Source: an uncultured Bacillota bacterium (GTDB taxonomy: Bacteria > Bacillota_I > Bacilli_A > RF39 > UBA660). From it: a stretch of 63,876 nt of DNA. Within the stretch, counting starts at the first letter, position 1. The number at the start of each line of letters is the position of its first letter. A program made the translations under genes and the position numbers. Of the stretch, positions 24,879 to 44,109 are shown piece by piece. Location of the stretch: NCBI GenBank assembly GCA_946622285.1, contig CAMOPK010000003.1, forward strand, positions 1 through 63,876, written 5' to 3'. A model generated the notes under the pieces. The model was not told the DNA's origin and searched no databases. It was given only the letters and a program-made list of their open reading frames with translations.

Positions 24879-25463
24879 TTAGTCTTCTTCTAAAATTTGC
24901 TTAGAATCAACAACAATCTCGATACTTTCAACAATATCTTGATAATTATAAGACATATAATCAAGTGGAAAATAAATAACCAATTGATAACTATATGTTT
25001 GATTAGTTTCAAAACTAAAAGTTTCCCTAGGTGCTACCATCGTTTTAAAATATGTTCCATCTTCATCAGCTGCAATAGATGTAGTTGACGAAATAATATT
25101 TGTAGCACCATTGGCATTATATGCTTGATTTTTATAAAGTTCATATGAAAGTGGCAAATTAGTAGTAGTTACAATTTTTAAATCATAAAGAGCATCTACA
25201 CCTAATCTATTAGTGCCATCATTATTTGAAACTGTAAAATTCACGATATATGGATCATTACTTGGCTCTAATTTGCTCAATACTACGTTCTTTCTTTGAT
25301 ATTCTGTATTAATGATATAAAATGCAACATTAATATCAGGATTAGTATTTGCACTAGACTGATATCTAGAAAATACCTTTGGTAGAATAGCAAGTGCTGT
25401 CATCAAAAGTACTATTGCCATTGATGCTTTGATTGCTAATATAAAACGTTTTTTTGATATCAT
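24879..25463 (-). CDS. Secreted protein with a SipW-class-like signal (194 aa), small accessory subunit candidate
   Basis: N-terminus KKRFILAIKASMAIVLLMTALAILPKVFSRYQSS. ATGA start/stop overlap with the upstream sipW. Confidence 0.5.
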   Translation of the reverse strand: MISKKRFILAIKASMAIVLLMTALAILPKVFSRYQSSANTNPDINVAFYIINTEYQRKNVVLSKLEPSNDPYIVNFTVSNNDGTNRLGVDALYDLKIVTTTNLPLSYELYKNQAYNANGATNIISSTTSIAADEDGTYFKTMVAPRETFSFETNQTYSYQLVIYFPLDYMSYNYQDIVESIEIVVDSKQILEED

Positions 25464-26017
25464 TTTTTCTTGCCTCCTATATCTAAGATTTCAATTCCAT
25501 CTTTGTCATATTTAACTTTATTTTTCTTTGGAATATATGAAACACATATACTAAATAAGAATAAAGTTATAACAATTGAAATAAAGATTTTAGGAGTTAA
25601 CAATATATCAACAAAAGAACTTGCTTTACTAAATACATGAACTACTTTTCCTACAATCATATCTTTAGTTATTGGAGAGTCACTACTATTATTACTATCT
25701 CCTCGTGTAATTATTTCTTTTCCTTTTTTTTCAACTACACGGTGAGTTATAAAGTTATCATCTTTGTAAAACGTAATAATGTCATCTTTTTTTACATCTT
25801 TATCGATTTTAACAATAATTACATCACCAATTTCTAACGTTGGTGACATACTTCCAGTTACAACACTAAAAGCAGTATAACCAAATAAATTAAAATATTT
25901 TTTACTTTGGACTTTTAATTGATAAAGTCCATATAAAGAAAAAATAATAGCAATTGATGTGATAAATAATAAAATATCAACAACAATTCGCATTATCTTT
26001 TCAGCTGTTTTTATCAT
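25460..26017 (-). CDS. sipW: Signal peptidase I, SipW/archaeal-ER type (S26B), catalytic motifs intact
   Basis: VVTGSMSPTLEIGDVIIV (Ser box), ITHRVVE (His box), TRGDSNNSSDSP (Asp box) and a C-terminal TM anchor. Confidence 0.85.
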   Translation of the reverse strand: MIKTAEKIMRIVVDILLFITSIAIIFSLYGLYQLKVQSKKYFNLFGYTAFSVVTGSMSPTLEIGDVIIVKIDKDVKKDDIITFYKDDNFITHRVVEKKGKEIITRGDSNNSSDSPITKDMIVGKVVHVFSKASSFVDILLTPKIFISIVITLFLFSICVSYIPKKNKVKYDKDGIEILDIGGKKK

Positions 26018-26034: not shown

Positions 26035-26646
26035 TTATTCATATTCAACTAATTCTTCACCTAAATATTGCATTACATCAATTTGCACAGGTATTGATAT
26101 TGAGCCATCAATATTCATTCCTATTTCTGTATCAATATCATTATTTTGTTCATCATTATCCCACTTTATCGCAACTCTTACACTACTAAATGCATTATTT
26201 CGTATTTCACTTAACGTTATTATTCCAGAATAAACATTTTCACCAGTTCTTACTAGTGTCCTTCCATTCAACTCAGCAATTTCATCGACAACTAAACTAG
26301 TTGATAGTTCTGAAAAGTCAAATGTAATATCATATCTAATTGAGACATCAGTACCACTAGGAATAATATTTAAATCAAAATATGCACTTGTACCAGGAGC
26401 CATTCTATTTTGAACAACATGTTCGTTAGTAGATATATTAACATTATTAACTGTGAATTGTGTAGTATCACCAGAAATATTTGTACCATTAACATAAATG
26501 TTCCAAGATCCAGCTGTTGTTCCTGCTTGAACACTTATTTCGCTTTCAAATAAAGCATATGAGTCACGAACATTATAAATGGTAATTCCTAGCATAATTA
26601 CTACTGCCACAATAAGTAGAATTTTAGCGTTTTTACTTTTTTCCAT
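26035..26646 (-). CDS. TasA-family-like secreted protein (small class, 203 aa) with a SipW-cognate-type signal
   Basis: KILLIVAVVIMLGITIYNVRDSYALFESEISV. The motifs MAPGTSAYFDLNI and VRVAIKWDNDE are shared with the 193-aa paralogue. Confidence 0.65.
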   Translation of the reverse strand: MEKSKNAKILLIVAVVIMLGITIYNVRDSYALFESEISVQAGTTAGSWNIYVNGTNISGDTTQFTVNNVNISTNEHVVQNRMAPGTSAYFDLNIIPSGTDVSIRYDITFDFSELSTSLVVDEIAELNGRTLVRTGENVYSGIITLSEIRNNAFSSVRVAIKWDNDEQNNDIDTEIGMNIDGSISIPVQIDVMQYLGEELVEYE

Positions 26647-27166
26647 TATTTGGGTTCTTTACTTCCATAATTACAGCATATACTAAATATATAAACATTA
26701 GAAGTACTGGCAAAATTATTAGGAAAAGGAAGCCCCATCTAGATTCAAGAACAGATAAAGCTGTACCAAGTCCACTATAAACTTTGCTTGTTTCAGCCTT
26801 TCCTATAATATATCTACTTGTTAATTTTAAGTTTCCTTCAATTGTAAATGTACTTTCAGTTTCAGTAACTTTAGTATTATTAACAACGTCACCTAAATTA
26901 ACAGAAACTTGATGCTCTTTTCCATTATAGAAAAATATTTTATCTCCAGCCTCTATTTCAGAATCTGCATTACGTTTTACAATAACCAAATCGCCTTTTT
27001 TAAAACTTGGTTCTAACGCATCATCTTTAACAATTATAAATGTATTTTTGCCTATTACAGTTAAATTATACTCATTATAATTTAATAGACAAATCGTAAG
27101 TCCTAATGCAATAGTAATATATATAACTATCACAATTCCAATCAAAAATTTTAATACTTTTTTCAT
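26633..27166 (-). CDS. SipW-like protein with a degenerate active site (predicted pseudo-peptidase)
   Basis: Same architecture as SipW (N-terminal TM, beta core, C-terminal TM). The Ser box reads VKDDALEPSFKKGDLVIV, with Ala at the position of the nucleophile Ser. His is retained (KEHQV). No GD.N..D box. Confidence 0.65.
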   Translation of the reverse strand: MKKVLKFLIGIVIVIYITIALGLTICLLNYNEYNLTVIGKNTFIIVKDDALEPSFKKGDLVIVKRNADSEIEAGDKIFFYNGKEHQVSVNLGDVVNNTKVTETESTFTIEGNLKLTSRYIIGKAETSKVYSGLGTALSVLESRWGFLFLIILPVLLMFIYLVYAVIMEVKNPNNGKK

Positions 27167-27214: not shown

Positions 27215-28768
27215 TCACTCTTTCTTTTCAACAATATCAAGGGCATTAAAAACAAATTCCATATTATCAAGATTAGCATTGATTTTTTTGAAATGAATGT
27301 TATTTGATAATGCTGTTGTTGCATCTATTAAACCATCAATGTTTTCTTCTTCTAACATTTCTGGTGTAATATTTAAGCCTAGCAAATTATATTTATCAAA
27401 TATTACCATTGCAATATCACGTTCATCTGTTATATATATGTTTTTAATGACATCAAGTTCATAATTAAATAGATAATAATTTATTTCATAGATTGTTCTA
27501 TTAACATCATCATCTGTTAATGTTTCATCACTACTTTTAATTAACCTATTTATGTATCGATAATCAGAAACAGCTAGTTCTAAAGCTTCATATATACTAG
27601 TCGTTTCATTTAATGAAGCAACACGCTCTAAAAATAGATTATCTTCATATTCACGATATAAACCTTCAACTTGTAAAATCATTACATTTACTTTGTTAGT
27701 CAAATCTTCTATTTTTTCAAGTTTTTTACCTTTAGAAATCATTTTATTTAATTTTTTACTAGTACTAATTAGTTTGCTTTCTAGTTTTTCGATTTCTTTC
27801 TTTTTAGGTGCTGCTATTTTATTATATTTTTCTTTTTCTTTATATATCTTTTTAATATCATCAACAATATATTTATATTTTAAATATGACTTATATTCTT
27901 TAAGTGAATCATTTAATTTTAAAACATTTGTGTTGATGGCATCTGTAACTTCAGCACCATCTTTTAAAATCATTTTATAATTTTTTTCAATTTGAATATC
28001 AGTATAATCTTTAAAATTTAAAATACGATTTAAAAATTTATTGCATATTAAATAATTATCTTCAAGAATTAAAGTATTTTGTCTTTTCTTTAAGCCTAAA
28101 TATTCATCAAATATACCTTCAGCATCTTTTTGCTTATTTTGCATCAAAATTATTTTTTGATCCGCATAATAATTATCAAAATACTTCATATATTTATAGA
28201 ATAAATATTTAAAGTTAATTGTTATTTGTTTAATTAAATCTGGACATTTCCAATAAAGTGAATCAAATAGCATTTTTAGTTTTGCACTGTTAATTCCATT
28301 TTGACGCTCAGCAAATACTTCATTTATATACATCGAAGTATAGATGCTATAGACAAAATCATCTGGACATAATTCAATACCAACTTTTTCAAATATATTT
28401 ATTGATGCAAAAATATTTTCATTTGCTACTTCTAAACTTGATTTATAGAAGTGATCCAAACTATAGAATATACGATCAAGACCACTTTTTTCATAAGATG
28501 TTGCTGTATCATTTAATATAGGCATCAATTTATACATTTCTTGAATCTTTTGATTTAATACTTCTAGTTCAGGATTTAATTCATAACTACTATATTCTTT
28601 ATATCTTGATTTAATTTCATTTAAAACAGTATCACAGTCTTCCGTATACTTTTTAATTAATTTATCAATTTCCGAAACACATTTCGTGCGATTTTTAACA
28701 TTATTTCTAGGTAAAGCATCTATGACTTCTTTACTAACATTGAATTCATTTTCATAATCATTTATCAT
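27215..28768 (-). CDS. Cytoplasmic, largely alpha-helical/coiled-coil protein of unknown function (517 aa)
   Basis: No signal peptide or TM segment. Lys/Glu-rich heptad-like stretch KKKEIEKLESKLISTSKKLNKMISKGKKLEKIEDL. Second gene of the unit that continues into the sipW-like genes. Confidence 0.55.
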   Translation of the reverse strand: MINDYENEFNVSKEVIDALPRNNVKNRTKCVSEIDKLIKKYTEDCDTVLNEIKSRYKEYSSYELNPELEVLNQKIQEMYKLMPILNDTATSYEKSGLDRIFYSLDHFYKSSLEVANENIFASINIFEKVGIELCPDDFVYSIYTSMYINEVFAERQNGINSAKLKMLFDSLYWKCPDLIKQITINFKYLFYKYMKYFDNYYADQKIILMQNKQKDAEGIFDEYLGLKKRQNTLILEDNYLICNKFLNRILNFKDYTDIQIEKNYKMILKDGAEVTDAINTNVLKLNDSLKEYKSYLKYKYIVDDIKKIYKEKEKYNKIAAPKKKEIEKLESKLISTSKKLNKMISKGKKLEKIEDLTNKVNVMILQVEGLYREYEDNLFLERVASLNETTSIYEALELAVSDYRYINRLIKSSDETLTDDDVNRTIYEINYYLFNYELDVIKNIYITDERDIAMVIFDKYNLLGLNITPEMLEEENIDGLIDATTALSNNIHFKKINANLDNMEFVFNALDIVEKKE

Positions 28769-28886
28769 CTGTTTTTTCTGTCTCCGCTACTTCTTTTTTT
28801 GCTGTTTCAAGTATTTTTATATAATTGTTTATATTCTTATATAATGTTAATAAATCTTCGTTACTTAAATCTTTAAGATTTTCCAT
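28758..28886 (-). CDS. Unlisted 42-aa ORF, translationally coupled to the 517-aa gene
   Basis: Manual translation gives MENLKDLSNEDLLTLYKNINNYIKILETAKKEVAETEKTDDK. Its stop overlaps the downstream ATG (ATGATAAATGA). It falls below the 60-aa ORF-track cutoff. Confidence 0.35.
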   Translation of the reverse strand: MENLKDLSNEDLLTLYKNINNYIKILETAKKEVAETEKTDDK

Positions 28887-28949
28887 AATATAGCACTTCC
28901 CTACTATTTATAATTATATCTAATTTTTTCATTTAAGTCTATATTTTAA

Positions 28950-28979
28950 GAAAAAACTTGCAAAAATATTGCAAGTTTT
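28950..28979 (-). terminator. Rho-independent terminator after the 2884-aa gene
   Basis: Stem aaaacttgcaa (28953-28963) pairs with ttgcaagtttt (28969-28979), followed by a T-run on the minus strand. Confidence 0.75.
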
Positions 28980-31900
28980 TACTTGATAATTATATAACGA
29001 TAAACTTCACCAATATATGTATTTTCGTCATATAATCTAATTTCTAGTTTATAAGTACCTGACATTAAATTATCCTTCATATATAAGAAATGTGTTAGGT
29101 TTGCAACTGGATTATCACTTAGAATATATTCGTTAGTTCCAGAACTTGTTAATGAAGTTGTGAAATAATCTGCAAAATCTACTTCATTATATACTGTTGA
29201 ATATATTTCGCTATAATCTCTTCTATATAGCTTAACACGTAGATTTGGATTACTAAATCCTGATTCATACGATATTGTTGCCAATAAGGCATTTGAATTA
29301 TTTAAGTTTTTACCAGTATCTTTATCCCAGAACAAGCAATTTTCAGGAATACTTAATGTTAATCCATATAAAGTATCCATTACTTTTAAGTTTAGTTCTA
29401 GTGTATCAGATGACTCTAAACCATAATAAACGCCATCTGGTGAACCGAATGATTCAATTATAATTTTATAATTTCCTCCGGCTAAACTACTGTTTTCAGC
29501 ATGAACTTTTATTCTTGAGGATACATTAGCGACTCTCTCAGCAATCTTAATACGAGTTTCACCATTATCTCTTGGATAATAGATAATACCATTATTTTCA
29601 AAGTAAATACCTAATAAACTTGAACTAGTAACTTTGTTATTATATTCATCATATATTGATATTTTTATACCTAATTGTTGATCATAATAATTTGTATCAA
29701 TAATTGTATCAGATAATACTTTTTGTTGAATAAAGTTTGTATTAATGTTTATATCCATATTATTACCATTATAGAATTTAAGTGTATCAATTTGACCAGA
29801 CAAATCAATAACAGCATCTTTATTATGATATAAGTCATATACCATATTACCTTGTTCAATACCTAATACAGCTAAAATTGTTTGATCATTACTACTTCTT
29901 CTTTCAATTAAGAATGAATTATTTAATACATCAGAAGTAATATTAGTATCTTTAAAATCAACTATAAAGATGAATTCTTCTTCAACATAATGTAAATCAG
30001 AATTATAGTAAATTGTATTTGTTAAAGCATCATCATAATGATTATTTACTGATGTACTACCCATCTTTACAAAATTAGAAAGTTTATATGTTGCTTCATC
30101 ATTTAACGCATATTCAGCATTAGCTCGTGCTACATCAGCAGCACTTACAACATAGTAGTAGTAAACTGGCTTATTTTCAAGGTGATAGTCAATCATTGTT
30201 ATCTTTGTGTTTTCAGGTAAAACATATGAAGATACAAGTGAACGATAGTCACCAATTCGATATGGAGTTTGATCTACTTCCATGAATAATGAGAAGAAGG
30301 CACTGAAACTACTCTTATCTGTTATTTTTACATTACTTGAAGCAAACATTTCATATTTTTTACCTGTTGTAATAGTTGCTTCATAATCGTTTGTCGTATA
30401 AATTGCACGGCTTATATTTACATTTATGTTAATTCTTTCAACTTCATTAGTTAAATCATCAACAGGTGTTATCATAACAAGAGAAATAGTTGCTGTTCCC
30501 ATATCTCCAGATGTACCTAAATTTTTAGAATGGTACAAATAGAATAATAAACTTGGAACTGCCGTTGAGTTTTCTTTTTCATAAGTTGTTGTTCCTACTA
30601 TTGGCTGAGATGTGCTAGAAAGGAATTTAGTTTCTCCAACTGTAATCCAACCTGTTTGACCAGGTTTAATTGCAAGTCCCATGTTATTATCTGCATAATC
30701 ATTTGTTGGGGCAACTCTGGATATATTAGATGGATTAATTAAACTTACGCCTTCAGATAAACCATCGTAGTTAAAACCTAATATTGATAATTTAGTATTA
30801 GGTCTTGCATAATTAATGAAACTTAATTCTTCAACACCTAATGTTGAATATTTAGAAGCTGTTAAATTAACTTCATATGTTACAACTTGTTTTCCAACAA
30901 CCCACATATAGAAACTAGCATCAGCTGGTGTTGGTTCAATATAGAATGTTTTAAGTTCAGTTGATTCTTCAGAAACAAGATCGTTTGAATAGAAACCATC
31001 AACTTCAATATCATGAGAATCATAGTGACGCCCTAGGACGTAACTACCACTTGTGAAGTAATAAGCATCTCCTGATGTAGCATTATCACCATAATTATAT
31101 GAACTATTATATAGAGCTGTTACCGGTTGTCCACTACCGCCTTCTCTATACATTCCAAAGAAAGTCATACCTGAAACATCACCATATGAAGTAATGTTTT
31201 CATTAGTTGCAACATTTAAATTCTTATCTTCTTGCATATACAAACGGTTATCTACATTACGAGTTACTGTCTTAGTCTCATCATTAATGCTTACGCTTGC
31301 TTTTACTTCTTCATTATTAACATCAACTAATGAAGTAAATTTTTTAAGAAGATTAGCACCAGTTTTTAGATATAAACTAGTATTATTTTTTATTTTTAAT
31401 TCATCAATACGGCTAAGTGTAAATAGTACATCTGAATATTCATTAGTACGGTCTGTTGCACCTGCCAATTTAACATGTGAATTATCTAAAGTAACTATAT
31501 CAGCTCTCTGAATTGAAATATTATTCTTAACGGCATTTTTAGTGCCATAATTCTTAATCATAATATAACTATATCCAGTTGTAGATGATGCATTACCACT
31601 ACCAAATATTGAACCATTAATATTGAATACATTGTGTTCAGATGCATCAATATTAATATTAATTCCTGTTGTTACACTGATGAAACTATAGTCATAGTTT
31701 TCTGAACCACTGGCATTAGCTTCACCACCACCGAAGACAGTTCCACCAATCGAAATATTACCTGGTGTCAATGTACTCTTATTAACCGCATTTTTACCAA
31801 TATTTAACGTTGTTGTTCCATATAGTACTGATGTATTAGCTCCACCATAAACATTTCCACCAATTGTAGCTCCAACAATATTTACAACTCCTGTTGAATT

Positions 31901-34900
31901 GTTATTGCTTTCAAGTCCAGTTGCAGCGGCATTTCCACCTCCAAAGACATGTCTAGTAATATTTGTTGTTCCTTCAATATCAAGGTTAGTACTACCTTCT
32001 ACGATTGCAGTTACACCATTACCACCGGCATAAACGCTTTCTGAAACTACAGCATTAGTAACTAATACATGAGTGTTTCCTTTAACTCTAGCGGCATTTC
32101 CGCCACCAAAGATATTTTCAGTAACTGTTATTCCGTTTGTTTGAACACTAGTATTTCCAGCAACATAACCTAAGTTTCCACCACCATAAACACTTTCTGA
32201 AACAGTGGTTCCGTTATTTACTAACACAGTCGTATTTCCTGTTACTTTGGCTGGATTCATTTCTCCAGTTAGATCTCCTGATACAACTGAATTTATACCA
32301 TTACCTCCACCAAAGATGTTACATGTTATTGTACTATTTGAAACTGTAACGTTTGTTGACCCAATAATTGCAGCGGCATTTCCACCACCAAATACATTAC
32401 AAGTTGTTGCATTATTTAAAGTTAATACTGATGATGTAGAATTAGCATTAGTACCTACTTCAGCTTGATTTCCACCACCATATATTGCAGTTGAAACTGT
32501 AGATGATGTTATTGTCGATGTTGCAATTCCATCTGTTCTACCATTATTTCCACCACCATAGAAAGTACTACCGATTGTTGATGAAGATACTGTCGAAGTG
32601 ATATTTCCATCTACTTTAGCATTATTTCCACCACCATAAACACTTCCTGAAACTGTAGCAGTGTTAGCAGATAAGACTACATTTCCTGAAACATCTCCAT
32701 TATTTCCTCCGCCGAAAATATTATTAGTAACTGAAATTGTATTTAGAGTCATATTGACATTACCAGTTGTAATACCGTAGTTTCCACCACCATATATTGA
32801 ATCTGTAATAACTGATGAATCATTTACAATTAATTCAACATTACTATCAACTTTGGCATTGTTTCCACCACCATAAATATTTTGAGCAGTTGTTCCAGAT
32901 ACTTCTAAGTCAACTTCATCATCAACATCTCCGTTATTTCCGCCACCATAGATGTTGTTAGATAAACTTGAATCTGCAATTCCAGTAGTAATAGTACCTA
33001 ATGTTTTACCAAAATTTCCACCGCCATAGAAATTAGTAGCTGTCAATTCCTGAACATTTATTTCAATATTATCTTTAGCATCAGCGTTATTTCCACCACC
33101 GTAAACATTAGTTATACTACTTTCATCAATGTTTAATGTGATTTGCCCAAATACATCTCCGTTATTTCCACCACCAAAGACATTTCCATTAACTTGGGTA
33201 TTTCCCTCGATAGTTAAGTCTACTGTATGGTTAACGGCAGCATTATTACCGCCACCATATATAGCTCCTGGATGTGCTTGAGATCCAATAGTTGAACTAT
33301 TAATATTTGCAGTTACAGATGTTATTGCTGCGTTATCACCGCCACCAAATACACTATCTTTTATTGTTACATTTTCTAATGAAACATCTGATGTCCCTGT
33401 TACAGCGTAATCTCCACCACCATATAGTTTGTTAATAGTACCATGGTCTAGATCGATGTTAGCAGAACTTGTTACACCTCCGGCATTATTTCCACCATAA
33501 AGGTTATCAACTTCAAGTCCATTATAGCTATAAGCAATATATTCATTATTAGATGAATCATAACCTTTAATAACGTATCCTTTTATTTCAAAATCATCAT
33601 AAGAAACATATGAATGAATATTAAAATTAAAATTATAACTTCCACTTGCAACAATTGTATTTGTTCCATAGTATTGATTTTTCTCAGTGACTTTAAATGC
33701 CCCAGAGTCATATGTGATTGTTGCACTTGACCAGTTTGAATCAAGAACTGCAGGACCAGTTATCAAATATAATGTCCATCTTGTTAATGTAGCTCCTGTA
33801 TTGTTACTAATTGTTACAGCAAGATTTTCACTAGATAAGTGATCTGTTGTATTAGTTTGATTAACATTACTTACTGATTTTGTAACACTTACTGCAATAT
33901 TATCTTTACTAATGTTTCCATTAATTGATTTAACATTACTTGTTGTTACATCACCACTCATATCAGAGCCACCAAATGTATTTAAAATTAAGCCCTTATT
34001 TAAATTAACATTAGTTGTAGTTACTCCAGCTTCACTACCACCACCAAAGACATTCCCAGAATATCCATGATTGAAATTAATTGTTGATGTTGTTGATGGT
34101 GCTTTTTTACCACCACCATAAATGTTATTTGCAACACAACCATCAACTGTAATATTAGTATTAGTTGTTGTACCACCATCGTTGTTACCACCATAAATAT
34201 TCTTGGCAATTCCGTTTTGAATAGTTACGCGGCTTTCTCTAACTGTTCCAGCTGTGTTTGATCCTCCAAACAATGTTGTTACTTCACTTTTTAATGTTAC
34301 GTTACTTGCAACAGTTACATCTGTCTGCTCTCCACCACCATAAACGGTTGTGATATTACCACCATTTATAGTGACATTAGTGGTTCCTGTTGAACCTCCT
34401 AAATTATTACCACCATAAACGGTTGGACAAGTTCCTGAAGTACATGTAACATTTGCTGTTGTTACAGTTCCAGTAGTGTTTGATCCTCCAAAGATACGTG
34501 AAGAAGAACCACCTTGCAAATAAACATTAGTTGTTTTAGCACCAGCTTGGTTTCCACCACCAAATGTATTTTGAACTGTTCCACCTTTTAAATAAACAGA
34601 TATAGTTCCGTTTGGAATTCCAGCGGCATCATTTGCACCATATACGTTAGTAATTGTTCCATCATTTATAGTTACAGTTACATTTCCTTCAACATATGGT
34701 TCAAATGTACTACTTCCTTGGCCTCCACCAAAGACATTTGTAATTCGACCTTTATTGACTGTTACACTTGTATTATAGTTTGATAAATTTGTTGTTCTTG
34801 TTGATCCATTTACCGTACCATAAGCACTACCACCAAAAACGCTTCCATTTATGATTGGTGTAGTTGTTATATTACTATCTCCGATTGTTACATTTGCATT

Positions 34901-37633
34901 TCTTACTACAAATGTTCCTGGTGAACTATTGGATTCATATCCTCCTCGTCCTCCGCCAAAGACATTATTTTTAACTTCACCACCATATACTTTTACGTTA
35001 GTGCTACCATAAATTGTTCCCTGTGCATTACTTCCACCATATATTGATCCAAGGACATTACCTTTATACATTGTTATATCGATGGTTGCTACAGTACTGT
35101 TATCACCAGAACCGTTATTATTACCTCCACCATAAATATCGCCTTTGACCATACCATCATACATTACGATAGTAGATGAAGTTGTGGTATTTGAACTACT
35201 TACTCCAGTAGCTCCGTAGTTACCACCACCATACACATTACCAAGAATAGTTGCACCACCATCAATGACGATTGTTGAATTATCGGCAGAACCAATTGTT
35301 GATGTACCATTTTTACCATTTCCGATACCAAATACTGACCCAGCTTCAGCACCAAATAATTTTGTTTCATCTTCTACCAAATCTTCATCGCCGATTGTAG
35401 CATTTCCACCAACATATACATAAGTTGATCCATTTAAAGTTCCTTCGCCGTCAGCGCCACTATAACTGTTTGATCCCCCAAAGACACTATAGTTAATTTT
35501 TCCACCAGTGACACTGATAATTCTGTTTCCATAAGTTGCACTTCGTCCGGCGCCACCAATTACCATGTCAACCTCACCACCACTTATATTCATGATGATA
35601 TCATTGACATTTGCACGTGATGATGGAACAAGTGGTCCACCAATTAAGTTATATATGTGTCCGCCTTCAATACGTGCTCTTCTAGTTGAACGATGTTCAC
35701 CATAGTTTAAACCACCAACATAAATTCCTGCAGCATAATCATAATGATTGCTACCAAATGATCCACTTTTAACGATTAAATCAACTGAAATTTCTGTTGA
35801 AGTAGTTGTATTTGTTGAAGCATATATATTTCCACTCCAGCTTCCTGCTGATGTGTAATAAACATCTAATTTTTCGTTATCTTTATTATGTGCTTTATCA
35901 TAATCATTACCATAAACTGGTTTAGCCAAAATGTAAGCATTATATTGAGTATTACTACTTCTAGCTCCATAAACAACACCAATTCCGTTATAGAAACCAG
36001 ATTCAATTAATAGACTATATTTAGTAGGATTACCATTGCTACCTGTTGATGATGTTCCACCAATAATACCGGCAAAATTTAATCTTGTGCCACTTCTTGT
36101 TAGGCCTCGACCAAGTTTAACGTTATGAAAGTTTACTATTAAACTACCAGTTGAGTTTGTTGAATATGGAGGTGCATAATCATTTGTCCTAGTAGGTCCA
36201 TATATTTCCATATTTTCAATAACAACATCGCTATAGCAAGTAACTGTTAGATTGTTTGCAGTCCAACTATAATTACCAAGAGCACCATTATATACTGCAG
36301 TAAATGTGAATGGCTTTGTTGTTGAACTCCATGTTCTAGCTAAATTATCAACTCTTAAATAAACGATATTTGTATCTCTAGTTGTTAAATAATAATATGT
36401 ATCATCAGTATTTGCTATATTTGGAGTACCATTACTACTATATTGAATTAATTCATAGTAATTGCATCCATTATTTGTAGTACAAGTACCAGTTTGTATT
36501 TCACCTTGATTATTATAATATCCAGTATATGAAGCTTGATTATTTATATGAACTGCCCTAAAATATGATGCCATATTTTTGTTTTCATATGCTGGAGCTA
36601 CAACCCAATAGGCTTTATCCTCGTTATCGTATAAAGCCATACGTCCATTGACGACTGAATAATAAGTTGAATTTTGATTAAATATTTCATTTGTAATTCT
36701 TTGATAAACTATACAACCTCTATTTGTGTTACAAGTGCCACTTGTATAAGCATTACCACGATCATCATAATAACCAACATAACTTGCATATCTATAGATT
36801 GTTATCTGATGGAAAAAGCCCTCCATATTATCATTACGGTATCTTTTTTCAGTGATGTTCATTTGATGTAATCCAGCACTATCAAGATTATCTATAGCAT
36901 CATCCCATGGATTAACATTATTAAACCAACCACTGCTACCTAAAGTCGTAATTGATGCTTCTGCTGCATCAATCCATGTCGCATAAAATTCAATTTCAAT
37001 TTTATTTGGTACATTATTTGTATATGTAATTGGAATTTTAACATATCGCTTGTAGTAGTCCATATCAAGACTTACAATTGCTCCATTATAAGTTGTTATC
37101 CAGCCATTAAATCCTTTACCATTTGGTCTTCTAGTAAATGGATTATCAATCAATTCAATTAAGACAAAATCATCAGTAGTATAATTAGTATTATTATTAT
37201 CAACTGGATATGCTTTAAAATAAATATATGTGTCTTGTAACTCGCTTGGTGATACATAACCATGATTGCTGTTAGTAATATCTTGACCATGATATGTTAC
37301 TTTTGTTTGAACTAAATTGTTTTCCGTATAAATATTTTTATTTGCCGTTGTTGGAAGTGAACCATTACTTGAATAAATATAGTTCTGACCAGTATAGAAA
37401 TTTAAATCGTTTACTAATTCATTGACATATACTGTTGCACCCTCAACTTTACTGCTGACATAACTTGGATCATTAGTAAATGCAATTGACATTTCACTAA
37501 ATGTTGCAAAATAACTAATCGTTCCAACTATTAAAAGTAGAACACAAAAAAGAGAAGATAAAATGCGAACTTTAGCACTTAGGCTTAAAGAAGCAATTTT
37601 TGCTTTGATTTCTTTAATCATTTTCATTCGCAT
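28979..37633 (-). CDS. Giant (2884 aa) secreted beta-helix-repeat protein with a SipW-class-like N-terminal signal; putative adhesin
   Basis: N-terminus KVRILSSLFCVLLLIVGTISYFATFSEMS. It carries ~70 degenerate repeats of the type (V/I)(F/Y)GGGN.(A/G).V.G. No LPXTG or C-terminal TM. The RBS AGGTGA favours the third ATG (37627) as the start. Confidence 0.85.
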   Translation of the reverse strand: MRMKMIKEIKAKIASLSLSAKVRILSSLFCVLLLIVGTISYFATFSEMSIAFTNDPSYVSSKVEGATVYVNELVNDLNFYTGQNYIYSSNGSLPTTANKNIYTENNLVQTKVTYHGQDITNSNHGYVSPSELQDTYIYFKAYPVDNNNTNYTTDDFVLIELIDNPFTRRPNGKGFNGWITTYNGAIVSLDMDYYKRYVKIPITYTNNVPNKIEIEFYATWIDAAEASITTLGSSGWFNNVNPWDDAIDNLDSAGLHQMNITEKRYRNDNMEGFFHQITIYRYASYVGYYDDRGNAYTSGTCNTNRGCIVYQRITNEIFNQNSTYYSVVNGRMALYDNEDKAYWVVAPAYENKNMASYFRAVHINNQASYTGYYNNQGEIQTGTCTTNNGCNYYELIQYSSNGTPNIANTDDTYYYLTTRDTNIVYLRVDNLARTWSSTTKPFTFTAVYNGALGNYSWTANNLTVTCYSDVVIENMEIYGPTRTNDYAPPYSTNSTGSLIVNFHNVKLGRGLTRSGTRLNFAGIIGGTSSTGSNGNPTKYSLLIESGFYNGIGVVYGARSSNTQYNAYILAKPVYGNDYDKAHNKDNEKLDVYYTSAGSWSGNIYASTNTTTSTEISVDLIVKSGSFGSNHYDYAAGIYVGGLNYGEHRSTRRARIEGGHIYNLIGGPLVPSSRANVNDIIMNISGGEVDMVIGGAGRSATYGNRIISVTGGKINYSVFGGSNSYSGADGEGTLNGSTYVYVGGNATIGDEDLVEDETKLFGAEAGSVFGIGNGKNGTSTIGSADNSTIVIDGGATILGNVYGGGNYGATGVSSSNTTTSSTIVMYDGMVKGDIYGGGNNNGSGDNSTVATIDITMYKGNVLGSIYGGSNAQGTIYGSTNVKVYGGEVKNNVFGGGRGGYESNSSPGTFVVRNANVTIGDSNITTTPIINGSVFGGSAYGTVNGSTRTTNLSNYNTSVTVNKGRITNVFGGGQGSSTFEPYVEGNVTVTINDGTITNVYGANDAAGIPNGTISVYLKGGTVQNTFGGGNQAGAKTTNVYLQGGSSSRIFGGSNTTGTVTTANVTCTSGTCPTVYGGNNLGGSTGTTNVTINGGNITTVYGGGEQTDVTVASNVTLKSEVTTLFGGSNTAGTVRESRVTIQNGIAKNIYGGNNDGGTTTNTNITVDGCVANNIYGGGKKAPSTTSTINFNHGYSGNVFGGGSEAGVTTTNVNLNKGLILNTFGGSDMSGDVTTSNVKSINGNISKDNIAVSVTKSVSNVNQTNTTDHLSSENLAVTISNNTGATLTRWTLYLITGPAVLDSNWSSATITYDSGAFKVTEKNQYYGTNTIVASGSYNFNFNIHSYVSYDDFEIKGYVIKGYDSSNNEYIAYSYNGLEVDNLYGGNNAGGVTSSANIDLDHGTINKLYGGGDYAVTGTSDVSLENVTIKDSVFGGGDNAAITSVTANINSSTIGSQAHPGAIYGGGNNAAVNHTVDLTIEGNTQVNGNVFGGGNNGDVFGQITLNIDESSITNVYGGGNNADAKDNIEINVQELTATNFYGGGNFGKTLGTITTGIADSSLSNNIYGGGNNGDVDDEVDLEVSGTTAQNIYGGGNNAKVDSNVELIVNDSSVITDSIYGGGNYGITTGNVNMTLNTISVTNNIFGGGNNGDVSGNVVLSANTATVSGSVYGGGNNAKVDGNITSTVSSSTIGSTFYGGGNNGRTDGIATSTITSSTVSTAIYGGGNQAEVGTNANSTSSVLTLNNATTCNVFGGGNAAAIIGSTNVTVSNSTITCNIFGGGNGINSVVSGDLTGEMNPAKVTGNTTVLVNNGTTVSESVYGGGNLGYVAGNTSVQTNGITVTENIFGGGNAARVKGNTHVLVTNAVVSESVYAGGNGVTAIVEGSTNLDIEGTTNITRHVFGGGNAAATGLESNNNSTGVVNIVGATIGGNVYGGANTSVLYGTTTLNIGKNAVNKSTLTPGNISIGGTVFGGGEANASGSENYDYSFISVTTGININIDASEHNVFNINGSIFGSGNASSTTGYSYIMIKNYGTKNAVKNNISIQRADIVTLDNSHVKLAGATDRTNEYSDVLFTLSRIDELKIKNNTSLYLKTGANLLKKFTSLVDVNNEEVKASVSINDETKTVTRNVDNRLYMQEDKNLNVATNENITSYGDVSGMTFFGMYREGGSGQPVTALYNSSYNYGDNATSGDAYYFTSGSYVLGRHYDSHDIEVDGFYSNDLVSEESTELKTFYIEPTPADASFYMWVVGKQVVTYEVNLTASKYSTLGVEELSFINYARPNTKLSILGFNYDGLSEGVSLINPSNISRVAPTNDYADNNMGLAIKPGQTGWITVGETKFLSSTSQPIVGTTTYEKENSTAVPSLLFYLYHSKNLGTSGDMGTATISLVMITPVDDLTNEVERININVNISRAIYTTNDYEATITTGKKYEMFASSNVKITDKSSFSAFFSLFMEVDQTPYRIGDYRSLVSSYVLPENTKITMIDYHLENKPVYYYYVVSAADVARANAEYALNDEATYKLSNFVKMGSTSVNNHYDDALTNTIYYNSDLHYVEEEFIFIVDFKDTNITSDVLNNSFLIERRSSNDQTILAVLGIEQGNMVYDLYHNKDAVIDLSGQIDTLKFYNGNNMDININTNFIQQKVLSDTIIDTNYYDQQLGIKISIYDEYNNKVTSSSLLGIYFENNGIIYYPRDNGETRIKIAERVANVSSRIKVHAENSSLAGGNYKIIIESFGSPDGVYYGLESSDTLELNLKVMDTLYGLTLSIPENCLFWDKDTGKNLNNSNALLATISYESGFSNPNLRVKLYRRDYSEIYSTVYNEVDFADYFTTSLTSSGTNEYILSDNPVANLTHFLYMKDNLMSGTYKLEIRLYDENTYIGEVYRYIIIK
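31590..35700 (-). repeat. Coding repeat region (parallel beta-helix-type GGGN/GGSN repeats, ~18-25 aa period), interrupted at ~33520-33925
   Basis: Recurrent ccaccacc(a/g)(t/a)a on the plus strand corresponds to YGGG/FGGG on the minus strand. Spacing is variable and the units are degenerate at DNA level. Confidence 0.8.
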
Positions 37634-37657: not shown

Positions 37658-37666
37658 ATTATACCA
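37658..37666 (-). promoter_or_regulatory. Extended -10 element (TGGTATAAT) for the 2884-aa gene
   Basis: Plus-strand attatacca reverse-complements to TGGTATAAT. It lies between the upstream terminator and the giant ORF. Confidence 0.5.
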
Positions 37667-37699: not shown

Positions 37700-37727
37700 T
37701 AAAAAAACCCATATTTAAGATGGGTTT
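37700..37727 (-). terminator. Rho-independent terminator after the 369-aa TasA-like gene
   Basis: Stem aaacccat (37705-37712) pairs with atgggttt (37720-37727). The loop contains the stop codon. A T-run follows on the minus strand. Confidence 0.7.
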
Positions 37728-38824
37728 GTTGTAAATTGTAAATTCAATTTCATGCCGCCTACAGCAGCATTGTTTTCGCAGTCAACATCCTGACCTTCAA
37801 TCCAAACATAAACGCGAACTTTTGTTATTCCAGCTTCTAAATTAAACACTTGTATGTATTCTTTAAAATCAGCTTTGCTGGTATAATCAACTTTAACAAC
37901 ATCAAAATATGATGGGAAATTAGCACGCTTTGCAGTATTTATCATTACACCAGCATCTTTTGGAATTTCAGCTTTTACGCCTTCATAAGGTAAAACTCCA
38001 CTTGGTGCTGAAATATTCATACCATAAACATCTCTTGCATTCTCTATTGCAGCAGCTGTATGAGTATTATAATTTGGTTCCCATATGTAAACATTGTTTC
38101 GGTTACTAGTCCTCATTAATTGTGCTGTTGAAACTGGACTATTTGCTTCAGTGTTACCTTCAACTACAAATGCAAAACGCATTGAATTTTCAATACCTGC
38201 AGATTCTTCTCCATCAGTGCCATTGTAAGTTGCACCTGACTCTTCAGTTAAATAAAGATTTGTTGGAGTATTTGTCTTTAAGAAAATATCAAAAGCTAAA
38301 TATTTAGCATTAAATGTTTCGCCAAAGCCTCTTTCATCTTGCTCTCTCGACGTTCTAAGGGTAAAGTTTGTTGAACTATTTCTAGCATTTTCAACTTTAC
38401 CATAAAACATCTTTAATTGACCAGCTTCAACTTCACCAATTGTTGAAACAGGTTCTAAAACAACTGGTAATTGATTAATACTAGATTGATATGTAAGATG
38501 GGCATCTTGCAAATCTTCAATTGTTATTTCTGGTCCCCACTTAATAGCATCAGCTGATATTTCAATGCCATTTTGGGCAGCAACTTTTACATCCATCAAC
38601 CAAACTGTGGCAATACGGTTTGATGTAAACCATGCATATGATGAAGTGGTAAGAGTTATTCCTAGCGCAAACAATAGTATAAGCAATAGAAATAATCTCT
38701 TACTACGATTTTTTGAATAATTATTCTGTTGGAGTTGCTGTTTCATTACTCTTGGAATCTGATTCTTTTGTCTCTGGTTTTGATTCTTTTGAGCCATTAA
38801 CATCACCTTCTTTGTTTTGATCAA
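37715..38824 (-). CDS. TasA/camelysin-superfamily-like secreted protein (large class, up to 369 aa) with a SipW-cognate-type signal
   Basis: KRLFLLLILLFALGITLTTSSYAWFTSNRIA. C-terminal motif VRVYVWIEGQDVDCEN. Paralogue of the 339-aa protein. The start is ambiguous: ATGs at 38824, 38803/38797 and 38746 all overlap the upstream gene. Confidence 0.7.
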   Translation of the reverse strand: MIKTKKVMLMAQKNQNQRQKNQIPRVMKQQLQQNNYSKNRSKRLFLLLILLFALGITLTTSSYAWFTSNRIATVWLMDVKVAAQNGIEISADAIKWGPEITIEDLQDAHLTYQSSINQLPVVLEPVSTIGEVEAGQLKMFYGKVENARNSSTNFTLRTSREQDERGFGETFNAKYLAFDIFLKTNTPTNLYLTEESGATYNGTDGEESAGIENSMRFAFVVEGNTEANSPVSTAQLMRTSNRNNVYIWEPNYNTHTAAAIENARDVYGMNISAPSGVLPYEGVKAEIPKDAGVMINTAKRANFPSYFDVVKVDYTSKADFKEYIQVFNLEAGITKVRVYVWIEGQDVDCENNAAVGGMKLNLQFTTNPS

Positions 38825-39512
38825 TATGTTCTTCTCTTATATCCATATGCATCTTAATTTCGCCACCAATTAATGCATCAACACAATCAGGGTCGTCACC
38901 TTCAAGCCATATGACTATTGTTATTCTGTCAACATCACCTGGCTTAAAATCTTTACGACCTTCCATTACAGCAAACTCGCTTGAATAGAACTCTTTTGTG
39001 TCTTTTTCAGGTTTATTTGTATAAGAGTTTTTCTTTGCATAAACTGTCTTTTCGCCATTTCTGAAAATCATAATTCTTACTGCTTCATCAACATTTCTTA
39101 TGACATCATCAATAGTAACGCTGTACCAATAGTTCTGAACTTCATTACCTTCATTTTCAACATAAAATGTATATGCAATATAGTTCTGGCCATTATGAGA
39201 ACCATCTTTTTCTTTATCAATATCATTTGGTAACCAATTTATTGATATATTATCCATAAAGTCCATATCTTGTGCATATAATCGACCTTTTGATTCTTTA
39301 TATTCTTTACTTTCATATATAACTATACCTGTTTTTAAGGCAAAGTTTGGGTCCAAAGTTACAGTAAATTTACCTCCGTTATAGATTATACTTAAAATTA
39401 AAAAAGTAATAACCAATAATAGAAAGCATGATAGCATAATTATTTTTAAACGTTTTTTAAATTTTTCACGGCGATTGATCTTTTTCGCAGTTACTACAAC
39501 TTCTTTAGCCAT
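38721..39512 (-). CDS. Membrane-anchored or secreted protein related to the C-terminal half of the large TasA-like proteins (263 aa)
   Basis: N-terminal anchor KIIMLSCFLLLVITFLILSIIYNGGKFTV. Shared motif RITIVIWLEGDDPDCVDALIGG. Lys/Glu/Ser-rich C-terminal tail. Confidence 0.6.
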   Translation of the reverse strand: MAKEVVVTAKKINRREKFKKRLKIIMLSCFLLLVITFLILSIIYNGGKFTVTLDPNFALKTGIVIYESKEYKESKGRLYAQDMDFMDNISINWLPNDIDKEKDGSHNGQNYIAYTFYVENEGNEVQNYWYSVTIDDVIRNVDEAVRIMIFRNGEKTVYAKKNSYTNKPEKDTKEFYSSEFAVMEGRKDFKPGDVDRITIVIWLEGDDPDCVDALIGGEIKMHMDIREEHIDQNKEGDVNGSKESKPETKESDSKSNETATPTE

Positions 39513-39641: not shown

Positions 39642-40223
39642 ATGAATAAAAGATTATATATTACATTAGCTTTAGCAATGATTTTTTTATCTATAACAGT
39701 CTTTTTAGTTCATGACTCTTATGCTAAATATTTAACAACTTTAAATGAAACAACTAATATAAAAGTCGCAAGATGGAGAATTTTAGTTAATAATAATGAT
39801 ATTCGTGCAAATAACACTGCCACTGCTGTTATAACACCAACGTTTTATCACAACGATAATATTTCTGATGATATAATTGCTCCAACTAGTGAAGGATATT
39901 TTGATTTAATAGTTGATGCATCTGATGCAGATGTTTCATTCCAATATACATTAAATGTTGGAGTTAATAGTACAAGCGCAGTTCAAGATTTAGTAGTTAC
40001 TGGCTATAAAATTGATAATGGTGATCTTGTAACAAATATAACTAATCCATTATTTCAAGATACTATGTTATATAGTTCTAGTGTTAAAACAAAAACAATT
40101 CGAGTTTTCATAAAATGGGATGATAGTGCTAATGCAACTATGGATAATGCAGCCGATACACTAGCAGCCGATGGAACTGCCAAATTAGATGTAACACTAC
40201 AATTTAGACAATTAGCTAGCTAA
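39642..40223 (+). CDS. TasA-family-like secreted protein (small class, 193 aa) with a SipW-cognate-type signal
   Basis: LALAMIFLSITVFLVHDSYAKYLTTLNE. IAPTSEGYFDLIVDASDADVSFQY and IRVFIKWDD are paralogous to the 203-aa protein. One of only two plus-strand genes. Confidence 0.65.
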   Translation: MNKRLYITLALAMIFLSITVFLVHDSYAKYLTTLNETTNIKVARWRILVNNNDIRANNTATAVITPTFYHNDNISDDIIAPTSEGYFDLIVDASDADVSFQYTLNVGVNSTSAVQDLVVTGYKIDNGDLVTNITNPLFQDTMLYSSSVKTKTIRVFIKWDDSANATMDNAADTLAADGTAKLDVTLQFRQLAS

Positions 40224-40234: not shown

Positions 40235-40265
40235 AAAAAGTTCTAGTTTTTACTAGGACTTTTTA
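40235..40265. terminator. Bidirectional hairpin between convergent genes
   Basis: aaaaagttctagt / actaggacttttt with one mismatch and loop tttt. It overlaps the 3' end of the 493-aa gene. Confidence 0.5.
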
Positions 40266-41724
40266 TTTTTCCGGATTTATATATATTAATTGCTATTTCA
40301 CGACCAACTTGACTTAACCCAGCAGAATTCAAATGGATTATATTATCAGATGGGCAAAAAATACTTTTATTTCCCTTTGAAAGCTCAGTGTAAGGAAAAT
40401 CAGAGCCTTTAATAATTGTACTATTATTTTTTACTATCTCTTTTTGAACTTCTCGAAGTTTAATGGTATTAGAATCATTTGTTGGATCAGCAAGTGAAGC
40501 ATTAACAATATATACCATTGCTCCAAAAGACAATTTCAAGTCTTTCATTAAACCTTGATGAACTTGCACGTAATTATCTTTATATCTGCTAACAGCATAG
40601 TCGTTAATATCACTTTCACCTTGATACACAACATAAAATCTATTCACAATTTTATTATAATCACTCTTTTTTAGTATATATTCCTCTGCCATTTTATATT
40701 TTTTTACCATTAAATTATATAAGTTAGCTTCTGATGATGGTGTAAATCTAAGTATCGATCTCCCTCCAGAAGCTGCTAAAACTATAATAATTTTATGATG
40801 TGTTTTAGCATAATATTCTTTGGCAAAATACGGAATCATATTTGTTCCTGTACTTATATGAGTTTGATAAGAATCACCAACTTTGATTGAAGTTATTTTT
40901 CCATTTCCAAAATAAGCATTTTCACCAAATGTTTTAGGATTAGTACTTATATCTACTAAAGTATTTTTTAACGCTAGATACTCAAATGCTACATTTTTAG
41001 GCATATCAACAGTTACTCTACTATAAGATACATTATGTAAAACTATATCATTATCAATATTTTTTAGTAACTTTGTATTATTTTCAGTGTTATTTTTCAT
41101 TGTCCCAACCATATTTGATTGGCCCCACATTAGAACTAAATCATAATAATCGTATACATCAAGTGAATACGTTGCAGTCTTTCCATTCTTTGTCTTAGCT
41201 GTTATTGTTGCTGCTCCAGCTCCTTTAGCAGTTACTTTGCCACTGGTTGAAACTGTAGCAATAGTAGTATCACTGCTTGTCCAAGTAATTTCATTATTTT
41301 TAGCATTACTTGGGCTTATAGTTACTTTAAGGTCCAAACTATCGCCAACATTTAAATCTCCACCACTTTGAGCAAATTTGATACCTTGAACTTCAACATT
41401 CGCATTTTTTTCAAAGACTGCTATTAGATTAATATCTCGATTGATTACAGTATTAACGTCAAATTTTTTTCCATCCAATTCCCAATATTTAAAAGTATAT
41501 TCTTTTTTTATTGGATTTTTTGGCAATGAAAGTATTTTACCTTCATACACCTCTACTTCATCATATATTTCATTATCAACTATATATACCACTTTATAAT
41601 TTGTTCTAACTGGAGGAACTTCAATAGATTTTGGTTCATTAATTGGTCTAATAAGTTCATATCCACATGCACCTATTAAAACTATTAAAACTGTCACAAT
41701 TAAGATAAAAAGTGTTTTTTTCAT
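40243..41724 (-). CDS. Lipoprotein: Listeria-Bacteroides repeat + Big_2 Ig-like domain + SASA-type (sialate O-acetylesterase-like, SGNH) esterase domain
   Basis: Lipobox LIGAC. KEYTFKYWELDGKKFD...INLIAVF. Big_2 domain LKVTISPSNAKNNEITWTSSDTTIATVSTSGKVTAKGAGAATITA. Catalytic-block motif LMWGQSNMVG. Confidence 0.7.
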   Translation of the reverse strand: MKKTLFILIVTVLIVLIGACGYELIRPINEPKSIEVPPVRTNYKVVYIVDNEIYDEVEVYEGKILSLPKNPIKKEYTFKYWELDGKKFDVNTVINRDINLIAVFEKNANVEVQGIKFAQSGGDLNVGDSLDLKVTISPSNAKNNEITWTSSDTTIATVSTSGKVTAKGAGAATITAKTKNGKTATYSLDVYDYYDLVLMWGQSNMVGTMKNNTENNTKLLKNIDNDIVLHNVSYSRVTVDMPKNVAFEYLALKNTLVDISTNPKTFGENAYFGNGKITSIKVGDSYQTHISTGTNMIPYFAKEYYAKTHHKIIIVLAASGGRSILRFTPSSEANLYNLMVKKYKMAEEYILKKSDYNKIVNRFYVVYQGESDINDYAVSRYKDNYVQVHQGLMKDLKLSFGAMVYIVNASLADPTNDSNTIKLREVQKEIVKNNSTIIKGSDFPYTELSKGNKSIFCPSDNIIHLNSAGLSQVGREIAINIYKSGKIKSPSKN

Positions 41725-44092: not shown

Positions 44093-44109
44093 CCCTTTTC
44101 ACCCTTTTC

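Follow-up and report, generated by a model that had tools for sequence, protein, structure and literature searches.

A giant repeat-built surface-type protein and its conserved gene cluster with SipW-like signal peptidases in uncultured gut Bacilli

The stretch of DNA described here, referred to as the window, comprises the 63,876 nucleotides of contig CAMOPK010000003.1 (GenBank assembly GCA_946622285.1), from an uncultured Bacillota bacterium placed by its GTDB lineage in RF39, and it carries a gene for a protein of nearly 2,900 amino acids (aa), hereafter the giant. The data support the view that the giant is a secreted, repeat-built, surface-type protein without a recognised anchor. Its gene belongs to a cluster of ~24 kb and ~18 genes, whose order is near-invariant across the loci compared and which includes four SipW-like signal peptidase genes. 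The best-supported conclusion is that this cluster works like the SipW/TasA-type fibre systems and yet fails the sequence tests for TasA, and that it contains new parts: four peptidases, a giant protein with a presumed solenoid, and an McrBC-like NTPase. As for the giant, the chances seem to us about even that it is a fibrillar adhesin of this SipW-type surface system, exported by the Sec route, cleaved at its signal, and held non-covalently via its C-terminal stalk.

The gene lies at 28979..37633 on the reverse strand, as do all the features given below unless stated otherwise, and its reading frame is intact; the longest open reading frame (ORF) encodes 2884 aa, just as the preliminary description of this DNA had it. 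The probable start is the ATG at 37627, which gives a protein of 2882 aa, because this codon sits 6 nt after an AGGTGA ribosome-binding site, which the first ATG abuts, and because it agrees with a database protein (P0001) of 2882 aa that is 100% identical to the giant. The sole hydrophobic segment is at aa ~16-48, and there is no C-terminal transmembrane segment. A single LPXTG-like string, LPTTA at aa 93, is not a sorting signal, and no sortase-type C-terminus, i.e., LPXTG followed by a hydrophobic segment and a basic tail, was found in the giant. Among 90 full-length relatives, none has a C-terminal transmembrane segment, and one has a chance LPXTG match. The lack of LPXTG, anchor, and C-terminal transmembrane segment, remarked on earlier, therefore holds for the window protein, and the last of these for the relatives as well. 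Scans of the whole giant and of three segments with Pfam and NCBIfam gave zero matches, as did a profile of the family run against PDB sequences, and by these searches no catalytic or carbohydrate-binding domain is detectable in the giant.

The protein starts with a signal region (aa 1-47, 37493..37633) made of a basic n-region, a hydrophobic h-region of ~24 aa, and the junction T45-F46-S47|E48. An all-beta head follows (aa 48-560, 35954..37492), with no match to a Pfam family or to a PDB or viral fold. The head carries the duplicated paired-Cys motif noticed in the preliminary description, and both pairs are indeed present: YVGYYDDRGNAYTSGTCNTNRGC, with C301 and C307 (36713..36781), and YTGYYNNQGEIQTGTCTTNNGC, with C384 and C390 (36464..36529). 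All four Cys are invariant in a 25-sequence alignment. Next come repeat block I (aa 561-1240, 33914..35953), characterized by (V/I)(Y/F)GGGN turns, a non-repeat insert of 130 aa (aa 1241-1370, 33524..33913), which has no Pfam match and is missing in about half of the relatives, and repeat block II (aa 1371-2040, 31514..33523), which has a regular period of 25-26 aa. The first part of block II differs in copy number among relatives; the number of turns over aa 1371-1800 is variable (50% gap fraction in the alignment). The C-terminal region (aa 2041-2884, 28982..31513) contains the end of the presumed solenoid and then about six immunoglobulin (Ig)-like beta-sandwich domains.

The repeats stand out clearly from chance. 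The pattern [VIFLY][FYV][GA]G[GSAN][NDESGQ] has 33 matches in the giant, compared to a mean of 0.5 and a maximum of 4 in 1000 shuffles; the matches are mostly 25-26 aa apart and cover aa ~717-1240 and 1371-1970, which amounts to about 3.8 kb, in good agreement with the ~4 kb of degenerate GGGN-type repeats first noticed. No tandem repeat exists at the DNA level in the giant gene, which rules out a recent expansion and indicates that the protein repeats are old. Recognised repeat families (PF02415, TIGR01376, and Beta_helix) have no match in the giant.

Two models were predicted with AlphaFold2, one of residues 1-640 from a 29-sequence alignment and one of residues 2040-2884 (845 aa). The N-terminal model (predicted local distance difference test, pLDDT, 88.3; predicted template-modelling score, pTM, 0.80) presents the all-beta head after an N-terminal helix, and a Foldseek search with it against PDB and viral structures returned nothing at E < 0.001. 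The C-terminal model (pLDDT 86.5) is also all-beta, the last part of the repeat region leading into the beta-sandwich domains; its best Foldseek match is the Ig-like stalk of the Enterococcus adhesin PrgB (8BEG, E = 5.5e-16, probability 1.0), and its 470 PDB matches at E <= 0.001 are all multi-Ig or macroglobulin (MG) arrays. Other matches of this model are macroglobulin/complement MG arrays, integrins, and pilins. The global template-modelling scores are low (0.23-0.28), as expected from the flexibility of Ig arrays. Prediction by segments thus gives confident models of both ends, with a head that resembles no known fold and a C-terminus that is Ig-like. From the repeat period and composition, and from the coils of short strands that both models show at their edges, we infer that the central shaft of ~1,400 aa is a beta-solenoid.

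How widespread is this protein? Patterns based on a single protein had found no relatives; the alignment-based scan, with one genome per species, revealed 304 species-representative genomes that encode a giant relative. A protein search returned at least 275 clusters, all of 2.4-3.3 kaa (thousand aa), none with a Pfam domain, and with 'hypothetical protein' as their only name. The C-terminal 844 aa, searched exhaustively, gave 441 clusters at 50% identity; the proteins concerned have 2,000-4,700 aa, and in nearly every case they carry this module at their very C-terminal end. The titles of the relatives' records mention uncultured Tenericutes, Bacilli, Mycoplasmatota, and Acholeplasmataceae, together with 'Clostridium sp. 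CAG:914/628/451/609' and 'Firmicutes CAG:321/884', and their sources are human, primate, ruminant, and chicken guts. The host group of the relatives is probably that of the RF39-like reduced-genome Bacilli of gut and rumen, judging from these titles and from the placement of such CAG-numbered genomes in RF39 by GTDB. Bacilli of the RF39 type are common in human and animal guts, and their genomes are small; OZ006994.1, the sole complete metagenome-assembled genome (MAG) among the matches, has 1.26 Mb. In the literature considered, they are described only from MAGs, and most are predicted to keep peptidoglycan and possibly sporulation (PMC10868615). No description of the giant family, of the cluster or similar ones, or of RF39 with SipW was found in the literature.

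Within the family, conservation is highest towards the C-terminus of the giant, while the head and the number of repeats are more variable, a gradient consistent with a stalk close to the cell and a variable head at the far end. There is also a sister clade of giants of 2.7-3.3 kaa (loci L043, L068, and L075; proteins P0070, P0073, P0104, P0107, P0110, P0111, P0114, P0116, P0117, P0119, and P0120) that differ in their N-domain, whose pattern W-D-G...G-x-G...D-P-Y-x-I is characteristic of a beta-helix cap. This clade keeps the C-terminal stalk, the SipW cluster, and a T-F-[ST]|E junction; it appears to be a case of swapped heads on a conserved chassis.

The cluster itself was defined by comparing the window proteins with the ORFs of 80 fetched loci. 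Its first part reads SipW-like A - p305 - p324 - p507 - p373 - SipW-like B - p210 - p193 (in reverse) - p263 - tas - giant, and it continues after the giant with a micro-ORF - p517 - SipW-like C - p203 - SipW-like D - p194 - tas. The left module, from A to p210, is sometimes relocated downstream of the last cluster gene, and the pair p507 and p373 (42971-45633) travels with it. The linkage to SipW-like genes, sought within 10 kb, was counted on the 43 loci whose flanks each extend to at least 8 kb: at least one such gene with catalytic motifs occurs in 41 of them, and all four in 24. Homologues of the giant are thus not routinely devoid of a sipW gene nearby. In the same loci, p517 is found in 42 cases and p507 in 40. 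The protein p517 (27215..28768) is cytoplasmic, with no transmembrane segment and no Pfam match; of the 80 loci, 75 encode it, nearly always immediately after the giant gene. Two loci, L073 and L076, have an alternative layout, with p517 upstream of the giant gene and two tandem active-type SipW genes downstream; the signal of their giants is canonical, S-R-A|K or A-K-A|D.

Regarding the peptidases, sip185 (paralogue D, 25460..26017) is an archaeal/SipW-type signal peptidase I both by its TIGR02228 score, 72.9 bits for a cut-off of 51.85, and by its catalytic motifs S-M-x-P, T-H-R, and G-D-x-N-x-x-D. The Ser and His motifs are kept in sip186 (paralogue B, 42398..42958). The other two, sip177 (paralogue C, 26633..27166) and p169 (paralogue A, 47539..48048), have lost the catalytic Ser and His and kept both transmembrane helices, the N-terminal and the C-terminal one, and this loss is consistent across relatives. 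With both catalytic residues gone and the helices in place, these two are likely pseudo-peptidases with a structural role.

The giant shares its cleavage-type junction with its small neighbours. In the giant family the h-region ends with T-[YF]-[SG]|[DE], and the broader class [ST][YFW][AGSC] is found at this position in 169 of 182 relatives (12.6% in random windows), with D or E at +1 in 102; the clade with the swapped N-domain keeps the junction too. The small proteins end their h-regions with [ST]-[YF]-[AG]: T-Y-A|W-F-T in tas, T-Y-A|K-Y in p193, and T-Y-G|L-F in p203, to which S-F-A|W-F in p210 and T-x-G|R-Y in p305 can be added. The window copies read S-Y-A|K-Y in p193, S-Y-A|L-F in p203, and S-T-Y-G|R-Y in p305. 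TasA itself has T-W-A|A, and its fibre structure (PDB 8AUR) begins at A28, the mature N-terminus. Moreover, conservation in the giant is lowest in the n/h region (31% versus 40-64% elsewhere), as expected of a signal that is removed. The match of the junction to those of the small neighbours and of TasA makes cleavage after S47 likely; the predicted mature N-terminus is then E48, and the semi-tryptic peptide starting from it is EMSIAFTNDPSYVSSK. The preliminary description had assigned the giant a SipW-class signal with a TasA/CalY-like junction instead of a standard AxA site. The T-aromatic-small class common to the small neighbours and TasA and the adjoining SipW-type genes agree with this proposal, whereas the profile of SipW-cognate signals and the canonical sites of distant relatives, discussed below, do not.

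Eight small signal-bearing or membrane-anchored proteins are encoded in the cluster. The putative fibre subunit tas339 (23675..24694) has the junction T-Y-A|W-F-T-S-N and ends with W-x-E-G-Q-D-x-D-C-E-N. Its paralogue tas369 (37715..38824) is directly upstream of the giant gene, and its start is uncertain: the longest ORF, with TTG as its first codon, shares about 100 nt with p263, and as a close relative has a homologue annotated with 323 aa, the real start is probably an internal ATG. A candidate membrane anchor is p263 (38721..39512), a protein with a single transmembrane helix that looks uncleaved, without a cleavage-type junction, and with a C-terminal W-x-E-G-D-D-P-D-C motif; in the general form W-x-E-G-x-D-x-D-C, this motif is common to p263 and the tas proteins. 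The remaining members are p193 (39642..40223, forward strand), small and secreted, whose divergent orientation recurs in nearly all relatives; its small secreted paralogues p203 (26035..26646) and p210 (41769..42401); the small signal-bearing p194 (24879..25463), a distant paralogue of p193; and the signal-bearing p305 (46619..47536).

Are these proteins members of the TasA family? The preliminary description had spoken of a TasA locus, and this label does not survive the comparisons. No PF12389 match was obtained in 30 tas and 28 p193/p203 sequences, neither tas nor the ~200-aa neighbours match TasA in the PDB, and hhalign against a 117-sequence TasA/CalY (PF12389) profile gave the neighbours a probability of 4.5% at most. 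A search with a tas-family profile had only close unannotated relatives among its matches, with no Pfam-labelled path to TasA. The small proteins are instead related to each other, with probabilities of 99.9% for p203 and p193, 95.6% for p203 and p210, 91% for p194 and p193, and 92.5% for tas and p203 over the N-terminal part. At the level of motifs, they resemble TasA at both ends. The TasA superfamily is extremely divergent, often with several paralogues per operon (bioRxiv 10.1101/2024.11.04.621531), and a remote homology of the small proteins to TasA is possible in view of this divergence and of the likeness at both ends.

The giant gene had also been described as a transcription unit of its own, and the relatives speak for an operon. 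Among them the median gap between the upstream gene and the giant gene is 22 nt, and a conserved acidic, helical micro-ORF of 35-45 aa starts ~15 nt after the giant stop codon in about 60 of 71 loci. In the window, the micro-ORF encodes an acidic peptide of 42 aa (28758..28886), and its end overlaps the start of p517; a 42-aa gene is also called in GCA_016648615.1. A hairpin with a T-run covers the giant stop codon (28948..28984, -14.9 kcal/mol, z = -5.85) and is found in 10 of 64 relatives, and a weak one covers the stop codon of the upstream subunit gene (37705..37727, -7.9 kcal/mol, z = -1.67) and is found in 15 of 57. Given the short upstream gap, the close micro-ORF, and hairpins limited to a minority of relatives, the giant gene is normally operonic; the lineage of the window may have added attenuators. 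The promoter and the terminator that had been attributed to the gene are both visible in the sequence, the former as an extended -10-like TGgTATAAT (37658..37666) that is a match by consensus only. This match carries little weight, because promoter-like consensus sites are no commoner in the AT-rich DNA of the window than in shuffles (81 found versus 89.5 expected), and the terminator, strong as it is here, belongs to the minority just mentioned.

The best-conserved protein of the cluster is p507 (44110..45633), with 78% mean column identity across relatives. It consists of two transmembrane helices, a coiled coil, and an McrB-like AAA+ NTPase, the latter matching McrB (PDB 6HZ4, E = 1.3e-4) and the PADLOC candidate PDC-M26A (E = 5e-36). 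Its partner p373 (42971..44092) has a DUF2357 domain, similar to the N-domain of McrC, and no transmembrane segment, and no nuclease domain or motif was detected in it. With regard to McrB and McrC, the AAA+ relation is weak but present, and the N-domain of p507 is made of two transmembrane helices and a coiled coil. A defence island is not favoured as an explanation of the pair, because of the transmembrane tether, the 78% conservation, and the fixed position. The neighbouring p324 (45637..46611) is a conserved cytoplasmic protein.

On the ground of the observed reading frame, repeats, fold classes, synteny, and motif conservation, we infer the cleavage, the enzyme responsible, the formation of a fibre, the attachment point, and the adhesive role along the following lines. 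The giant would be composed of a cleavable signal, a head of ~510 aa with two Cys pairs, a solenoid shaft of ~1,400 aa with the 130-aa insert, and an Ig-like stalk. Its signal would be removed by sip185 and/or sip186, and the same enzymes would process the small proteins that have the [ST]-[YF]-[AGS] junction. Of these, tas339, tas369, p193, p203, p210, p194, and p305 would build a surface fibre, or its base, tied to the membrane by the uncleaved single-helix p263. The conserved C-terminal stalk of the giant would be held on this base non-covalently, and the variable head would be presented for adhesion. The reading of the giant as an adhesin attached by its stalk is based on the conservation gradient, on the lack of an anchor in the 90 full-length relatives, and on the precedent of Clostridium perfringens, where fibres produced from a SipW operon are held by the membrane and not by peptidoglycan (bioRxiv 10.1101/2024.11.04.621531; PMC7395162).

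Several observations weigh against this reading. Two loci, L018 and L054, contain a giant gene and no SipW-like gene within 10 kb. TIGR04088, the profile of SipW-cognate signals, has no match in the first 70 aa of the giant, and tas339 scores 11.8 bits (E = 0.21), below the cut-off of 19 bits. Distant relatives have junctions of the type T-K-S|E, S-R-A|E/N, and A-K-A|D, with K or R at -2, although those of L073 and L076 are still in SipW-containing loci; in light of these ordinary junctions, the cleavage site is better regarded as a generic one, with small residues at -3 and -1, and the aromatic residue at -2 as a feature of the clade. Residues 51-60 are modelled at pLDDT 93 and packed on the head, which makes them something other than a free donor strand. 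The fibre is presumed, by analogy, to be formed by small neighbours that are not detectable TasA relatives. Last, AlphaFold draws residues 18-45 as one long helix, and the 24-residue h-region could be a signal anchor.

This last point leads to the main rival, which we consider unlikely: the N-terminal helix is not cleaved, and residues ~22-45 anchor the giant as a type II membrane protein, with the head beside the membrane and the Ig-like C-terminus pointing outward. The dead sip177, encoded two genes downstream, might then bind the helix uncut. In addition to the continuous helix, this topology gains from the lack of any other anchor anywhere in the giant family, from the two SipW paralogues out of four that have both transmembrane helices and neither Ser nor His, and from p263, which indicates that uncleaved single-helix anchors are in use in the cluster. 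However, the rule of small residues at -3 and -1 is obeyed in about 93% of the relatives, with textbook S-R-A|E and A-K-A|D sites in the distant ones, and p263, presumably the true anchor, is the protein that does not have the junction. The low conservation of the n/h region and the conservation peak at the C-terminus, which suits a stalk near the cell with a variable head farther out, also disagree with an N-terminal anchor. Or, is the giant a substrate of a housekeeping LepB-type signal peptidase I, released or loosely bound as a matrix protein or as one that binds or degrades carbohydrates, with the SipW paralogues serving the small proteins only and the co-location reflecting co-regulation? 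This lesser rival appears rather improbable to us. It takes advantage of the failed TIGR04088 match and of a junction that fits the general (-3,-1) rule and is of the canonical AxA type in distant relatives, where any type I signal peptidase could cut it. In the window, moreover, hairpins flank the giant gene, and beta-solenoids are common in polysaccharide lyases and hydrolases. It is contradicted by the strict gene order over hundreds of species, with its short median gap to the upstream subunit gene, and by a -2 aromatic residue that, in the clade of the window, is specifically common to the small cluster proteins and TasA; a catalytic or carbohydrate-binding domain, as said, is undetectable. 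A further lesser alternative, to which we give very little credence, assigns the cluster to a spore-surface appendage or an exosporium fibre and not to a structure of the vegetative cell. Several sources label TasA-family proteins 'spore coat-associated protein N', and sporulation genes are predicted to persist in RF39 genomes (PMC10868615), but the cluster showed neither a sporulation gene nor a sigma-E/K-type signal. The link is one of indirect association only, and the RF39 placement comes from record titles and from where GTDB puts the CAG-numbered genomes.

Compared to the stalk-held adhesin favoured above, a bolder picture can be drawn, which we regard as unlikely. The cluster would encode an unrecognised surface organelle, i.e., a strand-complemented, SipW-processed fibre carrying a solenoid adhesin of ~2,900 aa, with a platform of active and dead SipW paralogues and a membrane-tethered McrBC-like NTPase that powers or gates the assembly. 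If this were true, the motor of a restriction enzyme would have been repurposed for protein export or fibre assembly.

Some other features of the window deserve mention. Between p193 and p210, the lineage of the window has an insertion, p493 (40243..41724), a secreted protein with Flg_new, Big_2, and SASA (sialate O-acetylesterase-type) esterase domains, which neither an 88%-identical relative nor any of the 80 loci possesses. The cluster is immediately preceded, on its upstream side, by the gene for an 802-aa Big_2 protein (48167-50575) with hydrophobic N- and C-terminal segments, which is not kept with the cluster in the 80 loci. Farther on, a protein with six Listeria-Bacteroides (Flg_new) repeats (51514-54399) adjoins a bacterial serpin (401 aa, Pfam E = 2e-69). 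On the other side, about 10 kb from the cluster, there is a type IV pilus/type II secretion system (T2SS)-like set (10333-15456) made of a T2SS-E ATPase (12545-13876), a T2SS-F platform protein (11025-12533), and small ORFs, flanked by two large DUF285 ('Mycoplasma' leucine-rich-type) surface proteins (7616-10318 and 15538-18069).

What does the cluster mean for its bearers? In a genome of roughly 1.3 Mb, the giant gene occupies ~8.7 kb, and the order of the ~24-kb cluster is kept in about 300 species; on these grounds, the cluster is likely central to attachment to the host, to food particles, or to other microbes. It also offers concrete candidates for the sortase-independent retention of very large surface proteins.

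Each part of the system recalls something known and departs from it. The giant has the layout of PrgB, antigen I/II, and the serine-rich repeat (SRR) adhesins, with a signal at the N-terminus, a distal head, a long shaft, and a C-terminus of tandem Ig-like domains, and, as in other Gram-positive fibrillar adhesins, the head is more variable than the stalk. Unlike these adhesins, it has no LPXTG motif, C-terminal transmembrane segment, or charged tail; its presumed shaft is a GGGN-type solenoid instead of a coiled coil or serine-rich repeats, and the fold of its head is unmatched. A long shaft of glycine-rich repeats of ~25 residues is also found in autotransporters and in the chlamydial Pmp proteins, with their GGA(I/L/V) and FxxN repeats, whereas the giant matches neither PF02415 nor TIGR01376, has no C-terminal beta-barrel, and belongs to a monoderm host. 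The likeness to McrBC regards p507 and p373 only, where a McrB-related AAA+ protein adjoins a partner with the DUF2357 domain of the McrC N-terminus. In p507, however, the DNA-binding N-domain is replaced by two transmembrane helices and a coiled coil, and the protein is highly conserved and has a fixed place in a cluster of secreted proteins; in p373, no nuclease motif is recognised.

The closest comparison is with the SipW operons, tapA-sipW-tasA of Bacillus subtilis and sipW-tasA-calY of B. cereus. In these, as in the window, a gene for an archaeal/ER (endoplasmic reticulum)-type signal peptidase adjoins those of its known or presumed substrates, which have T-aromatic-small at -3 to -1; several paralogous small beta-proteins are accompanied by a larger accessory protein, and no sortase signal is present. 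The window cluster differs in that no homology to TasA/CalY (PF12389) is detectable in it by sequence or profile, it has four peptidase paralogues, two of them dead, and not one, and its accessory protein exceeds 2,800 aa. The membrane-bound McrB-like AAA+ protein with its McrC-like partner and the cytoplasmic p517, p324, and micro-ORF product are without counterpart in these operons. Another instructive case is the sipW-bsaA-bsaB-bsaC operon of C. perfringens, which encodes divergent TasA-like paralogues and BsaC, a secreted accessory protein of 70 kDa, and in which type IV pilus genes, a separate NTPase-driven machine, aid the export of the operon's proteins (bioRxiv 10.1101/2024.11.04.621531; PMC7395162). 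The window likewise combines a SipW operon with several small paralogues and a large accessory protein, and its T2SS-E/F set is about 10 kb off; the difference is that BsaC is a von Willebrand factor A (vWA)-domain protein, one-fifth of the size of the giant. Set beside these operons, the cluster widens the known range of SipW-type systems to more than one peptidase paralogue, some of them likely pseudo-enzymes, to a giant accessory protein, and to an associated, putative AAA+ motor.

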